64,000 nucleotides of DNA from IMG/VR virus record IMGVR_UViG_3300009151_000057, positions 11,078 through 75,077 of that record; one strand, 5' to 3'. Position numbers and translations under genes: made by a program. This document shows, in pieces, positions 2,686 through 42,457 of the stretch (positions are counted from its first letter, which is position 1; every line of letters starts with the position of its first letter). Below the pieces are notes generated by a model. The model did not search any database, was not told where the DNA came from, and saw nothing but the letters and a program-made list of their open reading frames with translations. Source of the DNA: a virus.

Positions 2686-3036
2686 ATGCCACCTAAAAAG
2701 AAAGGATTGAACAAAAAATTAATTTTAAAAAATCTGATTATTATACCAAGGGGTAGCAAGAGAGAAATTTACGCCAGAGAGATGAAATTGCTCAATGATT
2801 TGATTGCTAGATATTCAGAAGATTTTATTTGTGTCTTGACATTGAAAGAAAAATATGATAGCATCGCTGTTATATTAAGTGAGTCTTATAAAAAAGAACT
2901 AGATCTAAAATTTAGTAATTTTAATTATAAGATAGATATTAATAAATATGCTTTGCCCACCTTAACCGAAAAGGTTGGTGAAGATATTTGCATTTCGATA
3001 AAACCCAAAACAATTAAAAATTTTCTAAATGGCTAA
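2686..3036 (+). CDS. Hypothetical protein
   Basis: 116-aa ORF, co-oriented, overlaps the recA-like start. Confidence 0.7.
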   Translation: MPPKKKGLNKKLILKNLIIIPRGSKREIYAREMKLLNDLIARYSEDFICVLTLKEKYDSIAVILSESYKKELDLKFSNFNYKIDINKYALPTLTEKVGEDICISIKPKTIKNFLNG

Positions 3037-4165
3037 ACAAGAAAAAACCGTAGTTACATCAAAAGACGTTCTTTCTACTTATTTAAAGGATAATAAAGAA
3101 GATCATTATAATTATGAAGAGGACGTTCTTTACAAAGCATCCAGCGGATCTCTTCAATTAGATATTCAGCTAGGTGGTGGATTTGGTCCAGGTCTTCATA
3201 GATTTTGCGGCATTAATGAAGGTGGAAAGACTTCTGCTGCTTTAGAAGTTATGAAGAATTTTTTGCTTACAATTCCAAATGCAAAAGGCTTTTACATTAA
3301 AGCAGAAGGAAGACTTTCTGAAGAAATGAAAAAAAGATCTGGAGTTCCATTTACTACGAATCCAGAAAATTGGGAACTTGGCACTTGTTTTGTTTTTGAA
3401 AGTAATATTTATGAAACTGTAGTAGACGCAATGAGAAATCTTGTTGCAAAAAATGATGAAAAAATTAAATATTATTTTCTTCTTGACGCTGTAGACGGTT
3501 TAATTACGAAGGGGGATTTAGATAAAACATTTGAAGACTCCAATAAGGTCGCTGGAGGCGCTGTAATAGCCGCCAACTTCATGAAGCGCATGTCTATCGC
3601 ATTGGCGAAGAGAGGGCATATGGCGGTCTTTGTGTCGCAAGTTAGAGCAGATATTAAACTAGACCCTTATTCCAAGGCTCCAATTCGTCAAACATCAGCA
3701 ACTGGAGGGAACGCTTTGTTGCATTTTGCAAATTGGATTCTTGAATTTGAACCGAGATTTAATGGAGATTTAATTTTACAAGATTCTACAAATAAAAAAA
3801 TAGACCTTGAAAAGAATCCTGTTATTGGTCACTGGGCAAAAGTTACAGTCAAAAAATCGCCCAATGAAAAAACGAATCTTCAAATTCCATATCCAATTAG
3901 ATATGGTAGGAAAAATGGAACTTCAATTTGGGTAGAGAAGGAATTGGTAGATCTACTTTACGCATGGGAATTCATGAATAGATCTGGAGCATGGGTGAAA
4001 CCATCTGAAGATTTTATTGAATTAGTTAAAGACCTAAATATTGTAATTCCAGAAAGTTTTCAAGGCGAAAAGGCTTTATTTAAATTTATCGAAGAAAATC
4101 CAGAGTTGATTAAATTTTTAACTAATTATTTTAAGAATTCTATAAATGAAATTCAAAACTCTTGA
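3029..4165 (+). CDS. recA: RecA/UvsX-like recombinase
   Basis: P-loop GINEGGKT, LLDAV, SQVR, TGGNALLHFA. Confidence 0.88.
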   Translation: MAKQEKTVVTSKDVLSTYLKDNKEDHYNYEEDVLYKASSGSLQLDIQLGGGFGPGLHRFCGINEGGKTSAALEVMKNFLLTIPNAKGFYIKAEGRLSEEMKKRSGVPFTTNPENWELGTCFVFESNIYETVVDAMRNLVAKNDEKIKYYFLLDAVDGLITKGDLDKTFEDSNKVAGGAVIAANFMKRMSIALAKRGHMAVFVSQVRADIKLDPYSKAPIRQTSATGGNALLHFANWILEFEPRFNGDLILQDSTNKKIDLEKNPVIGHWAKVTVKKSPNEKTNLQIPYPIRYGRKNGTSIWVEKELVDLLYAWEFMNRSGAWVKPSEDFIELVKDLNIVIPESFQGEKALFKFIEENPELIKFLTNYFKNSINEIQNS

Positions 4166-9842: not shown

Positions 9843-12398
9843 ATGTTCGAAAACTTTCAGAAATATGAAATGCCAACAGCAGCTGGCGTTCTTCTCCCCA
9901 AGATCAAGATAGATAAAAAATACTATGATCTAATTGGTGCTCCAGATCAATGTTCTAATTTTGATTTCCTAAGACACTTATGTTTCTACGGAGTGAAGAA
10001 AAAGGAAATTGATAAATCAGACAAAAAAGATATTTATTATAACAGAGTAAAAACAGAACTTTCTATTCTAAATGAACTTGGGTTTATTGATTATATTCTT
10101 TTGAATTGGGATATACTAAATTATTGTCATGAGAACGATATCCCCACAGGTCCAGGGAGGGGCAGTGCAGCTGGATCTTTGGTGCTTTTCTTAATTGGCG
10201 TCACAAAAGTAGATCCAATTAAATACGATCTTTATTTTGAAAGATTCGTGTCCAAGAGTAGAGCTAAGAAAATAGAATACAATGGAACAACTTACCTTGA
10301 TGGATCTTTGTTGGCTGATGTTGATAATGATATTAGTTATGAACGTCGCAAAGAAGTGATTCAATTTATTGAAAATAAATACGTAGGAAAAACTTGTAAA
10401 ATTCTTACAATGAATACCTTAAGTGGTAAACTATGTATCAAAGAATGTGGTAAAATAGTTGCTGAACTAGACGAAACATCGGTGAATGAAATTAGTGATT
10501 CAATTCCTAAAAAGTTTGGAAAAGTAGCACCCTTAAAAGAAGCGTATATTGAAAGTGAAAAATTTAAAATATTTGCGCTTAAATATCCAGAAGTTTATAA
10601 AATTGCTAGAAAGCTAGAAAATTTAAATAAAAATACAGGTGTTCATCCTTCTGGAATTGCAATCTCTCACGATGATTTGCGTGAATTAATGCCAGTGCAA
10701 AAAACTGGCGATGGAGATTTAGTTTCTGGTTACGATATGAACAACGTATCAGAATTAACTGTTAAATTTGATATTTTAGGACTTCGCACACTTTCTGTTG
10801 TTTATGATGTATGCAAGCAAATAGGAATGGATGTTACTGAAATAGACATGTCATCAAATTTAATTTTTGATAACCTTAGGGATCTAAGATGTGCGCAAGG
10901 ATTATTTCAAATCGAAGCTGATACAAATTTTTCAGTTTGCAAAAAGATTAAACCAAGGAATCTAGAAGAGCTTTCTGCAGTGGTTGCAATCGCAAGACCT
11001 GGAGCATTGGAGTTCGTATCTAATTACGCAACTTTTGTAGAGAGCGGTGATTTTCAAAGCGTTAATCCATTCTTTGACGATGTACTATCGTACACTGGTG
11101 GAATTCCATTGTATCAAGAACAGCTAATGAAGATGGCTGTAAAGGTTGGATTTACACTCGATGAGGCAGAGCAACTTAGACGCATTGTAGGCAAGAAAAA
11201 AGTAGATCAAATAGAAGCTTGGAAACAAAAAATCGAAGATAAAATTAAAGAAAATTTTTTAGATGAAAACATTGGCAATATTTTGTGGAAGGTCGCTGAA
11301 GACAGTGCAAACTACTCTTTCAATAAATCTCACTCTATATCTTATGCTATTCTTGCTGCTTGGACTATCTATCTCAAATTTAATCATCCTACTGAATTCT
11401 TTTTGAGTTTACTTAAATTAACTCAGCAAGAACAAGATCCATACGAAGAAATATCTAAAATTTCCAAAGAGCTTCCTTATTTTAATATTCAATTGCTTCA
11501 ACCAGACTTGACAAAATCTGGAATTGACTTTCAAAGAGAAAAATTAAATATTAGATATGGTTTAAATTCAATTAAGGGAGTTTCCACAAAAGTTCTTGAA
11601 TCATTGATTGAATTCAGACAGTCTAATTTTTCTAATAAATACGAAATTTTTACAGCTGCAAAAGATAGTGGATTAAATATCGGCGCATTGTCTGCGCTTA
11701 TACAAGCTGGAACACTAGATGGCTTTACAAACAATCGTTGTAGACTAGTCCTTGAAGCTCAATGCTTCAATATCCTAACAGATAAAGAGAAAAATCAATT
11801 TATTAATATTGGCGATGTTCATGAATATGATATTTTAAATTCCATCAAGAAATCAATGGATGAAAAATTAATAGGTGAAGATGGCAAACGAGTAATGACG
11901 GACAAAAGATTTGAAACATTTAAAAAGAAATACGTATCTTACAGAGAGATTTACGATAAAAATGCCAAACATCAAAAATTTGCAAACTGGTTTTTTGAAA
12001 AAAAATTATTGGGATATAGCTACTCTCATATCATAAGAGATATATTTAAAGATGCAGACGACAATAGATTTACAAATACTTTAGAATTTAGTTCTATGGA
12101 TAATAATGAAGTTGTCAAAGTAGTTGGTTGGGTGACAGATGCTGAAAAAAGAACAAGTAGAACAGGTAACAAATATTTAAAGGTTGCCATTCAAGATGAA
12201 TTGGGTTCATTATTCACAATGATGATAGATAACTCTAGAGAGACTAAAATGACGAAGTATTATGATGAGGGAGGAGTTACACCCAAAAAAGACAGCATTG
12301 TAATCTTGACTGGCAAGAAAGGTAATGATACCATGTTCTTGGATAACATTTTCATACTAGATGAAAAAATCTATATGAAACTTTCAGAATTAAAGTAG
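9843..12398 (+). CDS. dnaE: DNA polymerase III alpha catalytic core (lacks the PHP N-terminus)
   Basis: GPGRGSAAGSL, LYFERF, ADVDND (catalytic Asp), HPSG, KFDILGL, YQEQLM, YSFNKSHS, C-terminal OB fold. Confidence 0.95.
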   Translation: MFENFQKYEMPTAAGVLLPKIKIDKKYYDLIGAPDQCSNFDFLRHLCFYGVKKKEIDKSDKKDIYYNRVKTELSILNELGFIDYILLNWDILNYCHENDIPTGPGRGSAAGSLVLFLIGVTKVDPIKYDLYFERFVSKSRAKKIEYNGTTYLDGSLLADVDNDISYERRKEVIQFIENKYVGKTCKILTMNTLSGKLCIKECGKIVAELDETSVNEISDSIPKKFGKVAPLKEAYIESEKFKIFALKYPEVYKIARKLENLNKNTGVHPSGIAISHDDLRELMPVQKTGDGDLVSGYDMNNVSELTVKFDILGLRTLSVVYDVCKQIGMDVTEIDMSSNLIFDNLRDLRCAQGLFQIEADTNFSVCKKIKPRNLEELSAVVAIARPGALEFVSNYATFVESGDFQSVNPFFDDVLSYTGGIPLYQEQLMKMAVKVGFTLDEAEQLRRIVGKKKVDQIEAWKQKIEDKIKENFLDENIGNILWKVAEDSANYSFNKSHSISYAILAAWTIYLKFNHPTEFFLSLLKLTQQEQDPYEEISKISKELPYFNIQLLQPDLTKSGIDFQREKLNIRYGLNSIKGVSTKVLESLIEFRQSNFSNKYEIFTAAKDSGLNIGALSALIQAGTLDGFTNNRCRLVLEAQCFNILTDKEKNQFINIGDVHEYDILNSIKKSMDEKLIGEDGKRVMTDKRFETFKKKYVSYREIYDKNAKHQKFANWFFEKKLLGYSYSHIIRDIFKDADDNRFTNTLEFSSMDNNEVVKVVGWVTDAEKRTSRTGNKYLKVAIQDELGSLFTMMIDNSRETKMTKYYDEGGVTPKKDSIVILTGKKGNDTMFLDNIFILDEKIYMKLSELK

Positions 12399-37756: not shown

Positions 37757-37959
37757 TGGAAAATTCAAAATTGAATCCGCTTGTAAGCTATGAAGTTGTA
37801 GATGGTCACAATGAATGTGTGGCAGCATACAGCTTAGAACTTAAGCAAAATTCTAACGGTAGATTTGATCCATTAAAAATGGCTCAAGATACTTTAAAAT
37901 TTAGACAAGATTATAAATTATTCGAAGTCTATGCAAACGGATTTAGAAAAGAAATTTAA
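37756..37959 (+). CDS. Hypothetical protein
   Basis: 67-aa ORF ending just before tRNA-Met. Confidence 0.6.
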   Translation: MENSKLNPLVSYEVVDGHNECVAAYSLELKQNSNGRFDPLKMAQDTLKFRQDYKLFEVYANGFRKEI

Positions 37960-37960
37960 T

Positions 37961-38036
37961 CGCGGGGTCGTCAAGAGGTTAAGACACTAGTCTCATAAGC
38001 TAGTATGCGTGGGTTCGAATCCCACCCCTGCAACCA
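37961..38036 (+). tRNA. tRNA-Met(CAT) with an initiator-like acceptor stem
   Basis: Cloverleaf: CGCGGGG/CCCTGCA with C1xA72; anticodon arm CTAGT-CTCATAA-GCTAG; T-arm GTGGG-TTCGAAT-CCCAC; encoded CCA. Confidence 0.93.
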
Positions 38037-38053
38037 ATTTATTTAGCTAAATA

Positions 38054-38500
38054 ATGGGAAAAAGCTGGAGCGAGCCGCGCTGATCTAGTAGCCCGTTGGG
38101 GCAAACGAGGTATTTTTTTCCAAACAAGTCGCGGGTAAACTTGTTAGCGAGGATAAGCTCTCGTACAATTTTCTCAGTAACCACAAACCCTCTGGTAGTA
38201 GGTTTTGCTGTAATTGGAATGTAGCAGCATAGAAATCCTGCTGAGAAAGCGACACATGCCTCCCTGCGTAGCGGGGTGCAGGGACTGGGAATACTCAGTC
38301 GAAGAGTTGTGTGACTAATCGGAGAGACGATTAATTGAGTTCCCCCAATTGGGGTGCGACACCTGCCAGTGGCTCCATGCCGCTGGATCTGGTCTACGTT
38401 TTGCGTGGGCTGGGTTAGTGGTGTGACGAATGGAGAGACATCTGTAAAGGCGACACCTGCCAGTCTGACAAAGTGGTGTGACACTGGGAGAGACTAGATT
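38054..38500 (+). ncRNA. Large structured ncRNA of unknown class with three repeated domains
   Basis: GC-rich island with no credible ORF, directly after tRNA-Met; many hairpins; three copies of GCGACAC(A/C)TGCC...AGT(T/G)GTGTGAC-stem-GAGAGA-stem with covariation; boundaries approximate. Confidence 0.75.
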
Positions 38501-38519
38501 TACTTAAATAAACCAACAT

Positions 38520-38828
38520 ATGAAAAAAATCCTATTAGTCTTAGCATTATTTACGACAACAACCGTTGGCTTGGTTCTGTCTTCTACAGGTGCTAAAAAA
38601 ATCAATACAGATAATATTAAAATAGATTATAAATCTATTTATATGGAAGACCCAAATGATCCAAAATGCTTGGCTGCTATCTTGTCAGAAGCAAGGCGAG
38701 CAACCTCTTCAATCTTGCAAGAAGGGGATGCGCCAATTTATAAACACTGTCCCAAATGTGAGACAGGGGTGTTTCTTCCAGATAAAGATGATGTAAATCG
38801 TTGCACTTTCTGTGGAAGTCAAGAGTAA
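38520..38828 (+). CDS. Secreted or membrane-anchored protein with C-terminal Zn ribbon
   Basis: Signal-like MKKILLVLALF; CPKC...CTFC. Confidence 0.65.
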   Translation: MKKILLVLALFTTTTVGLVLSSTGAKKINTDNIKIDYKSIYMEDPNDPKCLAAILSEARRATSSILQEGDAPIYKHCPKCETGVFLPDKDDVNRCTFCGSQE

Positions 38829-38835
38829 TTTAAAT

Positions 38836-38918
38836 GGGAGAGTATACCGTTAAGGAGACGGTCCAGACTGTAAATTTGGCGTACTTGTGCTCGGTGGGAT
38901 CGTTACCCACATCTCCCA
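38836..38918 (+). tRNA. tRNA-Tyr(GTA)
   Basis: GGGAGA/TCTCCC acceptor; anticodon arm CCAGA-CTGTAAA-TTTGG; long variable arm; T-arm GTGGG-ATCGTTA-CCCAC with atypical loop; CCA not encoded. Confidence 0.88.
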
Positions 38919-38921
38919 CTT
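38897..38921 (+). repeat. 25-bp direct repeat, copy 1 (tRNA-Tyr 3' end)
   Basis: GGATCGTTACCCACATCTCCCACTT, identical to 41119-41143. Confidence 0.95.
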
Positions 38922-38924
38922 GTT

Positions 38925-39722
38925 ATGATTATAAATATAGATCAGCTAGAAATACATGCTGCGCATATTTGTAATTTAAATTGTGAAAGCTGTTCTCATT
39001 TTTCAAATTCCAAACATAAAGGCTTTGTATCTATAGAAGATGCAGAATATTGGTTATCACAATGGTCAAAAAGAATAAATCCTAAAAAATTTAAAATTGT
39101 TGGAGGAGAACCAACATTAAATCCAAATTTAATAGATTTTTTACAAATTTGCAGGAAGTATTTTCCAAATTCATCTTTTGATTTATTAACTAATGGATTT
39201 TTCTTACATAATCATTTAGACTTACCAAAAACTTTATTAGATTTAAATATAGATTTATATTTATCTATTCATGATGATTCAAACCAATATATTGAAAAAT
39301 TAAAAAATATTGAAAATTTAATTTCTTGTTGGCGAAAAAAATATCCATTTAATTATTACACTTATAATAAAAGAGATTTAAATTCTTGGACGAGAAGGTA
39401 TCATGGTTTTGGAGAAAACGTAAAACCATTTGATGATAAAAATCCAAAAAAAAGTTGGGAAATTTGTCCAGCTAAAAAATGTATGCAATTATTTGATAAT
39501 AAATTATGGAAATGCTGTTTAATAACTTATTTAAATTTACAAAAACAAAAATATCCAAATTTAAGTAGTGAATGGGATAAATATTTAAAATATAAACCGT
39601 TAGAAATTAATTGTTCTGAAGAAGAATTAATTGATTTCTCTTTAAGAAAAGAAGAAGATATTTGTGGCATGTGTCCATCAGAAAAAATATTCTTTAAAAA
39701 GAAGTCTCCTTTAACGAATTAA
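38925..39722 (+). CDS. Radical SAM protein with C-terminal Cys cluster
   Basis: CNLNCESC (CxxxCxxC), GGEPTL, LTNG, WEICPAKKC...KCC...ICGMCP. Confidence 0.88.
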   Translation: MIINIDQLEIHAAHICNLNCESCSHFSNSKHKGFVSIEDAEYWLSQWSKRINPKKFKIVGGEPTLNPNLIDFLQICRKYFPNSSFDLLTNGFFLHNHLDLPKTLLDLNIDLYLSIHDDSNQYIEKLKNIENLISCWRKKYPFNYYTYNKRDLNSWTRRYHGFGENVKPFDDKNPKKSWEICPAKKCMQLFDNKLWKCCLITYLNLQKQKYPNLSSEWDKYLKYKPLEINCSEEELIDFSLRKEEDICGMCPSEKIFFKKKSPLTN

Positions 39723-39753
39723 TTATTTTACTTAATTCTGTGTAAAATATTTT

Positions 39754-41118
39754 ATGAAAGACTGTGGAAATCATCCAAACTCCTTTTCAACAAAAAGAGA
39801 GTTTTTAACTAATTTTGGTTGGGGGCTTGGAGGATTATCTCTAGCTTCAATACTTGGAGTAAATCCAATAACGGCTGAAGCCGTTTCTCCATTGGTTGCG
39901 AAACCATCTCATTTTCCAGTTAAAGCAAAAGCAGTAATTCAATTGTTTGCTTCTGGCGCTCCATCTCATGTAGATACATTTGATTATAAACCAGAACTCC
40001 AAAAGAGAGATGGAATGAAAGACAGCTATGGTAATTTATTAGCTTCTCCTTTTAACTTTCCACAGTTTGGAAAGTCTGGATTACATATTTCAGAAGTTTG
40101 GTCTAAACTTGGTCAACACGCTGACAGCATGGCAATAATAAATTCCATGCAAACTGATATTCCAGATCATGGTATTGCTCAAAAAATGATGAATACTGGA
40201 TCAACACAATTACCAAAACCTAGTCTTGGTAGTTGGTTAACATATGGTTTGGGAACAGCAAACCAAAACATGCCAGCATTTATTACATTAAATGGTTCTC
40301 CAGATTGGAGGCAATGTGCATTTTTACCAGGCATGTTTCAAGGATGCAACGTCCAGTATCGCACAGGTATGAAATCTGATGAGATTTTATCAAATCTTCG
40401 TAGCGAGTTTTCGACATTGGATAGACAAAGAAGGCAGCTTGAACTAGCCAAGTCAATGAATATTGAGCACATGTCTAGACTTCAAAAAGATTCTCAACTT
40501 GAAGCAAGAATAGAGGCATTTGAAACCGCATTTAAAATGCAAACGGAGGCATCCGACGCTTTTGATATTTCAAAAGAGCCACAAAATATTCGCGATCTAT
40601 ATGGAACAAATGAAGAAGCGAATAAAATGATTGTTGCTCGCAGATTAGTTGAAAGAGGTGTTCGTTTTGTACAAGTTCATGTTGGTGGATATGATCATCA
40701 TTCTGATATTAAAACTGCAATGACAAATACTGCAATGCGATATGATCAAGCTTTTGCGGGACTTTTAACTGATTTAAAACAAAGAGGATTATTGGATTCT
40801 ACTTTAGTAATTTGGGGAGGAGAATTTGGTAGAACTGTTACTGCTGGAGGTGGCGCAGGAGCACCTGGCAGAGATCATAATGGAAAAGCATTTTCTGTAT
40901 GGATGGCGGGCGGCAACGTCAAAGGAGGTCAACGCTATGGAGAAACTGATGAAACAGGTGGTAAATCAATTAAGGATATTGTTCATATACATGATCTTCA
41001 CGCTACAATTCTTAACCTTATGGGCTTTGATCATACTAAGTTAACATATAACTACAATGGTCGCGAATTTAGATTGACAGATAATTTCGGCAATGTTATA
41101 AAAGAATTAGTTAGTTAA
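39754..41118 (+). CDS. DUF1501-family (sulfatase-like) protein with a Tat-like N-terminus
   Basis: KREFL, KAKAVIQLF..GAPSHVDTFDYKP, PSLGSWLTYGLG, ARRLVERGVRFVQV, LKQRGLLDSTLVIWGGEFGRT, GRDH, HDLHATIL. Confidence 0.9.
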   Translation: MKDCGNHPNSFSTKREFLTNFGWGLGGLSLASILGVNPITAEAVSPLVAKPSHFPVKAKAVIQLFASGAPSHVDTFDYKPELQKRDGMKDSYGNLLASPFNFPQFGKSGLHISEVWSKLGQHADSMAIINSMQTDIPDHGIAQKMMNTGSTQLPKPSLGSWLTYGLGTANQNMPAFITLNGSPDWRQCAFLPGMFQGCNVQYRTGMKSDEILSNLRSEFSTLDRQRRQLELAKSMNIEHMSRLQKDSQLEARIEAFETAFKMQTEASDAFDISKEPQNIRDLYGTNEEANKMIVARRLVERGVRFVQVHVGGYDHHSDIKTAMTNTAMRYDQAFAGLLTDLKQRGLLDSTLVIWGGEFGRTVTAGGGAGAPGRDHNGKAFSVWMAGGNVKGGQRYGETDETGGKSIKDIVHIHDLHATILNLMGFDHTKLTYNYNGREFRLTDNFGNVIKELVS

Positions 41119-41143
41119 GGATCGTTACCCACATCTCCCACTT
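41119..41143 (+). repeat. 25-bp direct repeat, copy 2
   Basis: Starts at the base after the DUF1501 stop codon; identical to 38897-38921. Confidence 0.95.
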
Positions 41144-41472
41144 TTTTTAATTAGTGCTAATTTTTCTTGTGCATCTTTCTCGACATTTGGATTGAAAGAT
41201 TTCCAATCTCCCAAATGTCCAATTTTTAAATGACATTGTTCAGATTTTTCTTCGCATAATGTAATTAAATTATTTTGATCTAATTCCAATTCTGGATGCA
41301 AATGAAATGGTTGTTTGTGATGAACTTGTAAGTCTTGAACTTTTCCACAAGCAACACAAAAAGGTTGCAATTTAAGATGATTTTTCCTAGTAGTTTCCCA
41401 ATGAGTGGATCTTAAAGATAAAGGTTTTCCATTTAATTTTTCTTTAATTGAATTTATTATTCTTGTAATCAT
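41125..41472 (-). CDS. HNH endonuclease
   Basis: CVACG...VHHKQP...NLITLC...CHLKIGH; its stop codon lies inside the tRNA-derived repeat. Confidence 0.85.
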   Translation of the reverse strand: MITRIINSIKEKLNGKPLSLRSTHWETTRKNHLKLQPFCVACGKVQDLQVHHKQPFHLHPELELDQNNLITLCEEKSEQCHLKIGHLGDWKSFNPNVEKDAQEKLALIKKSGRCG

Positions 41473-41487
41473 TTTATTATAATTACA

Positions 41488-41517
41488 CGCGATGTCGCCT
41501 AGCGGTTATGGCGCTTG
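41488..41517 (+). pseudogene. 5'-half tRNA remnant (Pro-like)
   Basis: CGCGATG-TC-GCCTAGCGGTTATGGC-G-CTTG forms an acceptor 5' strand and a D-arm, then decays into AT-rich sequence. Confidence 0.5.
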
Positions 41518-41547
41518 AATTGTTATTATTTTTAGTAGTAAAAAAAG

Positions 41548-41627
41548 TCTCTGGTGGGGGAACGGTAGACCCAGAAAGCTGTTAACTTTCCGCGAAAGCA
41601 CTGTACGTTCGAATCGTACCCAGAGAG
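41548..41627 (+). tRNA. tRNA-Asn(GTT) with an extended variable arm
   Basis: TCTCTGG/CCAGAGA acceptor, G73; anticodon arm GAAAG-CTGTTAA-CTTTC; variable hairpin GC-GAAA-GC; T-arm GTACG-TTCGAAT-CGTAC. Confidence 0.88.
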
Positions 41628-41690
41628 TCAATTTTTTATCGTTGGCGCATAAAAAACAAGTTACCCTTCTTGCGAAAAAGGGATTTTTTC

Positions 41691-41765
41691 GCACCGTGAC
41701 TCAGATGGCTAGGGGACAGTCTGCAAAACTGTATTAAACTGGTTCGATTCCAGTACGGTGCTCCA
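41691..41765 (+). tRNA. tRNA-Cys(GCA)
   Basis: GCACCGT/ACGGTGC, U73, encoded CCA; anticodon arm ACAGT-CTGCAAA-ACTGT; T-arm ACTGG-TTCGATT-CCAGT; position 8 is not U. Confidence 0.9.
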
Positions 41766-41785
41766 TTTTAAAGTGTAAAAACGAT

Positions 41786-41977
41786 ATGTCTTTAGATAAG
41801 GCTATACAATATGGTAAAGAGTATCGTAAAAAATATTTTGACAGCAGAAGTTTCGATCCGCATTGTCGCAACAATGAGCGCTGCTCTTATTGCAGGGACA
41901 ATAGGCTATATTCTACAAACAAAAGAAAACGCAAAGCAAATTACGAAATAAAAGAATGGATAGAAAATCCAAATTAA
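41786..41977 (+). CDS. Small basic Cys-containing hypothetical protein
   Basis: 63 aa, CRNNERCSYC; GTGTAA at 41773. Confidence 0.65.
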   Translation: MSLDKAIQYGKEYRKKYFDSRSFDPHCRNNERCSYCRDNRLYSTNKRKRKANYEIKEWIENPN

Positions 41978-42369
41978 CATGGTGGTTAGACTTAGCAAAA
42001 GTCGGAGCTACTAGAAGTGAAGATCCTTGGTATAAAGTTGGCGCAATTGGAATCAGAGAAGATGGATCTATTGCTGGAGTTTCTTATAATGGCGCACCAC
42101 CAAAAATTGAAATAGATTGGTCAAATAGAGATGAGCGTAGAAAATACGTGGTTCATGCAGAGACTAATTTATTAAGATATATAAAACCAAATGAATGTCC
42201 AGTAGTTGCTGTTACATTAGCCCCATGTTTTGATTGTCTTAAAAATTTAGCAAGTTACGGAGTAAAGAAAATTTATTTTTCAGAATATTACGAGAAATGT
42301 AATGCAGATGAATTGCATAACATGGCAGACTTATTTAAAATAGAATTATTTCATGTCTCTGACCATTAA
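41956..42369 (+). CDS. dCMP deaminase
   Basis: KVGA, YNG, HAE, PCFDC. Confidence 0.9.
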   Translation: MDRKSKLTWWLDLAKVGATRSEDPWYKVGAIGIREDGSIAGVSYNGAPPKIEIDWSNRDERRKYVVHAETNLLRYIKPNECPVVAVTLAPCFDCLKNLASYGVKKIYFSEYYEKCNADELHNMADLFKIELFHVSDH

Positions 42370-42457
42370 GATTCAAATCGCTCAATTTATTGTCCAAATA
42401 ATTGTTGGTGCTGGCATTTTGATTCAAGGCTATATTTTACTTAAACGAGGCCGATAA
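42353..42457 (+). CDS. Small membrane peptide (not in ORF track)
   Basis: MSLTIKIQIAQFIVQIIVGAGILIQGYILLKRGR*. Confidence 0.4.
   Translation: MSLTIKIQIAQFIVQIIVGAGILIQGYILLKRGR

Follow-up and report, generated by a model that had tools for sequence, protein, structure and literature searches.

Plasticity of the regions that carry transfer RNA (tRNA) genes is already well known in T4- and T5-like phages. In the present work we examined such a region in a stretch of 64,000 nt from IMG/VR virus record IMGVR_UViG_3300009151_000057 (positions 11,078 to 75,077 of the record, one strand; 'the window', whose numbering is used throughout). The phage is an uncultured freshwater one with a GC content of ~30%, and the 75-kb record represents ~54% of its genome, the other ~46% being missing. 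In the window a short piece of a tRNA-Tyr gene is found a second time, 2.2 kb downstream, inside the coding sequence of a putative free-standing HNH homing endonuclease.

Judged by analogy, the nearest parallels to this arrangement are SegB of phage T4 and the F-Tfl genes of phage T5. The T4 gene segB is part of the tRNA cluster and is inherited along with flanking tRNA sequence; the enzyme recognizes a T-psi-C stem-loop motif and cleaves tRNA genes at their 3′ ends (PMC2330249). According to the same paper, the T5 endonuclease genes F-TflI and F-TflII are likewise located in a tRNA cluster. In T6, rearrangements that depend on SegB fuse tRNA-Tyr, through a microhomology, with a segB gene truncated at its C-terminus; the resulting tandem repeats of 718 bp contain all of tRNA-Tyr, and Septu defence selects for them (PMC13096335). 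A general survey places nuclease genes at the boundaries of genetic exchange between phages (PMC10448857).

The comparisons presented below indicate that the second tRNA-Tyr piece is probably a hitch-hiked flank of the HNH gene and no attachment site, and that the event was most likely an ordinary kind of phage mosaicism and not the arrival of a new integrating cassette. As with T4 SegB, a free-standing GIY-YIG homing endonuclease, the nuclease gene belongs to a phage tRNA array and varies in its presence between close relatives. The duplicated piece runs from the T-stem/loop to the 3′ terminus of the tRNA; SegB cuts map to the 3′ ends of tRNA genes, and the T-psi-C stem-loop is the core of its recognition site. 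The gene described here differs in being of the HNH and not the GIY-YIG type, in lying antisense to the tRNAs, in that its cleavage and homing are predictions and in having landed outside the homologous position of the array, with truncated tRNA pieces on both sides. The joint between tRNA-Tyr sequence and an endonuclease gene with an altered C-terminus recalls the T6 amplification, although in the window the repeat comprises only 25 nt, its copies stand 2.2 kb apart and there is no sign of amplification. The likeness to the T5 F-Tfl genes, which are endonuclease ORFs (open reading frames) within a phage tRNA gene cluster, is one of location. Consistent with the general survey, the HNH gene stands exactly at the synteny break between otherwise colinear relatives.

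A tRNA-Tyr 3′ end within the coding sequence of an HNH gene

The exact 25-mer GGATCGTTACCCACATCTCCCACTT is present in two copies on the plus strand of the window (Table 1), 2222 bp apart from start to start, and the whole record contains no others; from 100 shuffles of the window, the number of copies expected by chance was zero. It begins with the two final bases of the 5′ T-stem strand of tRNA-Tyr and ends 3 nt beyond the discriminator. Sequence search confirmed both the spacing and the gene boundaries of the original prediction: the ATG of a radical SAM (S-adenosylmethionine) gene lies at 38925, 3 nt past copy 1, the stop codon of a DUF1501 gene (41116–41118) directly abuts copy 2, and the stop together with the last five codons of the HNH ORF lies inside copy 2. 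Copy 2 is unable to form a T-arm, and a tRNA-like structure for it was rejected, as the 5′ T-stem strand is represented in it by 2 nt only and the sequence upstream of it is DUF1501 coding sequence.

The product of the HNH gene matches PF01844 with 26.5 bits against a cut-off of 21.4, and its CxxC...HH...N...H...C..CH columns align with those of its homologues. These homologues, found at 12 IMG/VR loci with 45–76% identity, occupy unrelated places with differing neighbours and have no tRNA adjoining, and their proteins have native ends such as EKLALIEKTKTLV, KTKTLV, RARAII and KAKNII. The window protein instead ends in EKLALIKK followed by SGRCG. DNA homology to the homologues ends at 41143/41144, past which the HNH ORF consists of antisense tRNA-Tyr, its TAA stop being the reverse complement of the TTA of the T-loop. 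Because the homology stops at this point and antisense tRNA-Tyr follows, we take copy 2 to be a recombination joint within the HNH coding sequence. The final two T's of the 25-mer may belong to the HNH side of this joint, since a T-run is found there in the HNH homologues. The bases that follow copy 2 (TTTTTAATTAGTG) resemble the trailers of tRNA-Tyr genes in two other IMG/VR loci (L032 and L003); we judged this to be due to chance, as the stretch is homologous to HNH genes elsewhere.

On its other side the HNH gene is flanked by a 5′ fragment resembling tRNA-Pro, which is 92.6% identical over 27 nt with the intact tRNA-Pro genes of nine IMG/VR loci; neither ARAGORN nor Rfam calls a tRNA at 41488–41517. 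A comparable arrangement was found in a complete 227-kb relative (G001), whose sole gene of this HNH lineage, a homologue at 58% identity, lies antisense between an intact tRNA-Met and an intact tRNA-Ile, its start 20 nt from tRNA-Ile. There too the native stop is missing, so that the ORF runs into antisense tRNA-Met (NEKK followed by VRPVGIEPTTKEL and a stop), and the joint falls, as in the window, immediately after the tRNA discriminator plus one C. Two points are somewhat unusual: in two independent cases an antisense HNH ORF overlaps the 3′ end of a tRNA, and in the window fragments of tRNAs flank the HNH gene on both sides.

A separate HNH-type ORF, ending in CPNCHSQTDTFGAKNKGNGRKARGLPLHY, was noted at ~3340–3475 of a related contig (L043). 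Its stop precedes a tRNA-Pro gene of like orientation by ~30 nt, and the ORF represents a second nuclease lineage beside tRNAs.

Table 1 Features of the tRNA-Tyr–HNH region (positions in the window)
Feature	Position	Strand	Description
tRNA-Tyr(GTA), class II	38836..38918	+	Non-canonical T-loop ATCGTTA; G7.A66 mismatch; CCA not encoded, CTT after discriminator
Repeat copy 1	38897..38921	+	T-loop to 3′ end of intact tRNA-Tyr, plus CTT
Radical SAM gene, 265 aa	38925..39722	+	CX3CX2C at residues 16–23; Pfam PF04055; variable insert between tRNA-Tyr and DUF1501
DUF1501 gene, 454 aa	39754..41118	+	Leader STKREFL, like that of the twin-arginine translocation (Tat) pathway; Pfam PF07394, E 7e-132; resident at the site in the clade
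HNH-associated indel, ~450 bp	41103..41551		Copy 2, antisense HNH, tRNA-Pro fragment and AT-rich spacer; 63 other bases in a close relative
Repeat copy 2	41119..41143	+	Isolated tRNA-Tyr 3′ fragment; antisense, the last five HNH codons (SGRCG) and stop
Putative free-standing HNH endonuclease gene, 115 aa	41125..41472	-	Pfam PF01844, PHROG HNH families; C-terminus replaced by antisense tRNA-Tyr
tRNA-Pro(TGG)-like 5′ fragment, nt 1–30	41488..41517	+	Truncated in the anticodon stem; distance to the HNH start codon, 16 nt
tRNA-Asn(GTT), 80 nt	41548..41627	+	Right flank of the HNH indel; retained in the HNH-less X2 allele

Alleles of the locus in related phages

No close cultured relatives were found, a 'distant' blastn search of a phage GenBank collection with positions 37900–42400 matching tRNA-Met only. 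Colinearity with the window extends over at least 8 kb in two IMG/VR contigs, L019 (identical to L005) and L032. In both, the order is GMP (guanosine monophosphate) reductase, glycoside hydrolase family GH46, two small ORFs, tRNA-Met, a structured RNA, tRNA-Tyr, DUF1501, tRNA-Asn, tRNA-Thr, a small ORF, dCMP (deoxycytidine monophosphate) deaminase and a gene of 308 amino acids. The DUF1501 proteins are 91% (L019) and 89% (L032) identical with that of the window, their genes begin ~22 nt 3′ of tRNA-Tyr, and their leader, TGTGTAAAATATT (TGTGTAAAATATTCTTATG), is identical with that of the window. Neither contig has a radical SAM gene, an HNH gene or a second tRNA-Tyr end at this locus. Their DUF1501–tRNA-Asn spacers (~45–50 nt) are homologous to each other and absent from the window, and no degenerate form of the 25-mer was found in them, the best matches (11/25 and 9/25) being at chance level.

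Two further alleles, X2 and X3, come from Logan metagenome contigs of two other studies, which were aligned on the window. The X2 contig carries DUF1501 (97% identical), then 63 other bases and then a tRNA-Asn of the window type, so that it joins 41102 to 41552 and replaces 41103–41551. The X3 contig, 2755 nt in length, carries a diverged radical SAM gene, DUF1501, 206 other bases in place of 41113–41632, and conserved downstream sequence; the interval that corresponds to these 206 bases comprises ~214 bases in L019 (spacer, tRNA-Asn and tRNA-Thr), so that the sizes agree. The HNH gene is thus a presence/absence polymorphism, being missing from X2, X3, L019 and L032, in which DUF1501 and the downstream flank are conserved. 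It follows from these four alleles that DUF1501 can stand here in the absence of the radical SAM gene, that the pair occurs without the HNH gene and that copy 2 occurs only with the HNH gene. With its nuclease domain, its presence or absence between conserved flanks and its scattered homologues, the gene has in silico the features of a free-standing homing endonuclease gene.

Proposed order of events at the locus

We propose that the locus was built up in three layers. DUF1501 would already have been resident behind tRNA-Tyr in the clade, and the radical SAM gene would have been inserted between the two in a sub-lineage, in an event separate from, and earlier than, the arrival of the HNH gene. 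As the third layer, an HNH gene from an inter-tRNA spacer would have been copied, with both of its tRNA edges, into the spacer between DUF1501 and tRNA-Asn, replacing that spacer. In large freshwater phages this HNH lineage seems able to sit antisense between tRNAs with its 3′ end joined to the 3′ terminus of the left tRNA, and the donor unit here would have comprised the tRNA-Tyr 3′ end, the HNH gene and the 5′ part of tRNA-Pro. A likely route is double-strand-break repair in a mixed infection, with a homologous right joint and an illegitimate left joint; such a transfer would have given a second copy of the last 23–25 nt of tRNA-Tyr, 2.2 kb downstream of the intact gene. Because of the SegB precedents in T4 and T6, we infer that cleavage by the HNH enzyme may have been the trigger. 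The edges of copy 2, the left in the T-stem/loop and the right at the tRNA terminus, are where SegB-like enzymes act.

Several points weigh against this order of events. Among the public contigs searched, none had tRNA-Tyr, HNH and tRNA-Pro side by side as a donor would; the tRNA-Tyr 3′ end occurs in four other contigs only, none of the four with an adjoining HNH gene; in metagenome contigs the 23-mer gave three matches, none with two copies or an adjacent HNH gene. The left joint shows no clear microhomology. The HNH-less alleles X2 and X3 are metagenome Logan contigs, and the content of the 63 and 206 replacing bases was judged from their size and from L019 and L032. In addition, the nuclease activity of the window HNH protein and its target are predictions, and the polarity of the events rests on parsimony over few relatives.

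This last point bears on the alternative that survives best, in which the polarity is reversed: the HNH gene would have stood first behind tRNA-Tyr, and DUF1501, with or without the radical SAM gene, would have been captured between the two during repair of an HNH-made break, duplicating the 25 nt. Such a history would fit with the 25-mer being required by the tRNA as well as by the HNH ORF, since duplication keeps both intact; the HNH gene of G001 does overlap a tRNA 3′ end, and the site behind tRNA-Tyr is variable, with five states on record. We nevertheless consider it improbable. All four relatives with DUF1501 at the site are without the HNH gene, L019 and L032 share a conserved DUF1501–tRNA-Asn spacer that the window does not have, and the reversed order needs either an independent entry of DUF1501 at the same position and with the same leader or repeated loss of the HNH gene with the same spacer regained. 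The suggestion of HNH-stimulated recombination in the original prediction survives in part: an HNH-linked origin of the repeat is retained, with the difference that the HNH gene with its tRNA edges, and not the cargo, would have been what arrived.

The radical SAM and DUF1501 genes are not a travelling unit

The original prediction had proposed an integrase-less cassette of the radical SAM and DUF1501 genes, bounded by the 25-mer as left and right attachment sites (attL/attR) and either mobilized in trans, for which we considered a site-specific recombinase, or generated by HNH-stimulated recombination. The 2.2-kb segment is indeed bounded by directly repeated tRNA 3′-end sequence, with gene ends tight against both copies, and in this the locus resembles tRNA-targeting elements (prophages, genomic islands and P4-type integrase islands), in which such a repeat flanks a segment that starts at the tRNA. 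Unlike in those elements, there is no integrase in the record, the genes are no unit, an empty site is lacking and one of the repeats lies inside the coding sequence of another gene. We therefore regard the cassette as very improbable. Relatives keep DUF1501 without the repeat, with the radical SAM gene present or absent; copy 2 interrupts the HNH coding sequence as a recombination joint would and is not a clean attachment site; and the two genes differ in GC content by ~15 points (21–24% for the radical SAM gene against 37–39% for DUF1501).

No match to tyrosine or serine recombinases (PF00589 and PF00239) was found in the 75-kb record, which covers ~54% of the genome, so the search for a tyrosine recombinase that had been suggested gave nothing in favour of the cassette. 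Nor did the suggested comparison with empty sites: no allele in which tRNA-Tyr is directly followed by the HNH gene was seen among the relatives, and those lacking copy 2 hold either DUF1501 (L019, L032 and X2) or the radical SAM gene plus DUF1501 (X3). Among the contig joints of four runs we found neither the joint of a 2.2-kb circle (41118 to 38897) nor that of a deletion (38921 to 41144), although contigs drop rare forms. Of four features of tRNA-integrating elements, direct repeats are thus the one found here, and a recombinase, an empty site and cargo that forms a unit were not found.

The genes are also unlinked elsewhere. DUF1501 was found on 17 IMG/VR contigs, in 15 of them in other contexts and in none with an adjacent radical SAM gene. 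Its counterpart, the radical SAM protein, is one of a large family (~265–285 amino acids) that has bacterial members ~45% identical (in Mesorhizobium, Bradyrhizobium, Burkholderiales, Planctomycetota and Methylobacter), and at 0 of 80 bacterial loci did DUF1501 lie within 4 kb of the homologue, the neighbours being variable. The radical SAM protein of the window matches no NCBIfam family at cut-off, and no relative of the gene was found in the viral contig collection searched. The two genes are thus no travelling unit. A functional pair, with the radical SAM protein as maturase of an enzyme of the alkaline-phosphatase superfamily, was likewise rejected, as the bacterial neighbourhoods give it no support. 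At the joints of the radical SAM insert, the 4-nt ACTT is the only sequence shared.

Among the bacterial loci, one from a Verrucomicrobiae metagenome-assembled genome (L055, 4798–5574) has the radical SAM homologue followed by a type I phosphodiesterase (PF01663), also of the alkaline-phosphatase superfamily; this is a single case. At the others glycosyltransferases, transporters or transposases adjoin, with no conserved partner. DUF1501, itself a member of that superfamily, occurs widely among contigs of large freshwater phages (17 loci, 75–91% identity), and in five loci (L026–L029 and L033) a second, ~30% identical paralogue lies directly upstream.

That two strains living side by side were joined by the assembly at the 25-mer they share, making the locus a chimera, seems scarcely credible, even though several related strains are present in the sample, X1 having extra short contigs and loose ends near 38842–38875: the separate Logan assembly of the probable source run gives a 2486-nt contig that spans 38846–41331 and bridges both copies with zero differences, a second contig of that run carries on from 41302, and the run index uses words of 31 letters, which exceed the 25-nt repeat in length. 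Because of this contig and of the word length, an assembly artefact at the repeat, an objection foreseen in the original prediction, is unlikely.

The tRNA-Tyr gene and neighbouring RNAs

The identity of copy 1 as part of a tRNA-Tyr gene, as originally proposed, was upheld by comparison of relatives, with the qualification that the gene is an unusual one, for which neither ARAGORN nor Rfam calls a tRNA at 38836–38918. In a class II cloverleaf drawn by hand, with anticodon GTA, 95.7% of the cells were paired across four homologous sequences, compared with 37–50% when the partners were slid, and three pairs in the anticodon and variable arms show compensatory changes. The minimum free energy fold of the sequence alone gave no cloverleaf (z-score −1.4). 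On this comparative evidence, the assignment of 38836–38918 as a real but unusual tRNA-Tyr(GTA) is well supported, and its conserved G7.A66 mismatch and ATCGTTA T-loop probably explain why the two programs miss it. Four other public contigs hold the 86-nt tRNA-Tyr sequence with a CCA end; the gene has this end in the IMG/VR and JGI relatives L003/L004, L005 and L036.

Five states were seen 3′ of tRNA-Tyr: another tRNA, a small ORF plus a tRNA array, DUF1501, the radical SAM gene plus DUF1501, and the present form. The view of the phage tRNA region as a hot spot of gene turnover, put forward in the original prediction, is borne out by this variety. A more specific idea is that the HNH lineage homes to tRNA 3′ termini (the joint after the discriminator plus C, in antisense, at tRNA-Tyr here and at tRNA-Met in G001), and that its breaks make the site behind tRNA-Tyr an acquisition hot spot for genes of the DUF1501 and radical SAM type in large freshwater phages; with the sequences at hand we would regard this as rather doubtful.

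Non-canonical T-loops are found in several tRNAs of this phage group, for example AGCGTTA in two tRNAs of L003 (695–765 and 930–1000), compared with TTCRANY. GGTTCRANTCC, the motif recognized by SegB-type nucleases, is not present in these T-loops, and what relevance this may have is a matter of speculation.

Upstream of tRNA-Tyr, and 3′ of tRNA-Met, the window has a non-coding stretch at 38040–38500 with ~49% GC and internal repeats, parts of which are kept at 84–100% identity in L019, L032, L041, L042 and L046; it has no Rfam match. In L019, a transfer-messenger RNA (tmRNA) at 2963–3388, which corresponds to 38500–38830 of the window, lies between the structured RNA and tRNA-Tyr (Rfam RF00023, 84.9 bits; ARAGORN predicts a 32-residue tag). 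At that position the window has an ORF of 102 amino acids (38520–38828), whose N-terminus resembles a signal peptide and which weakly matches a zinc ribbon. Downstream of the HNH gene, the window tRNA-Asn, which has a long variable region, was detected with ARAGORN, but Rfam gave no match at E<=1. Its place in L019 and L032 is taken by a different tRNA-Asn of 75 nt, and the next tRNA is tRNA-Thr in these contigs and tRNA-Cys in the window.

Implications

A repeated tRNA end in a phage genome need not signal site-specific integration, as the movement of a homing endonuclease gene overlapping the end of a tRNA leaves the same signature. For annotation, this means that the present radical SAM/DUF1501 cargo should not be scored as an integrative element. 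At a single locus, three layers, DUF1501, the radical SAM gene and the putative HNH endonuclease gene, can be placed in a probable order, and an HNH example from uncultured freshwater phages would thereby join SegB and the F-Tfl genes in the picture of nuclease-driven turnover in phage tRNA arrays.

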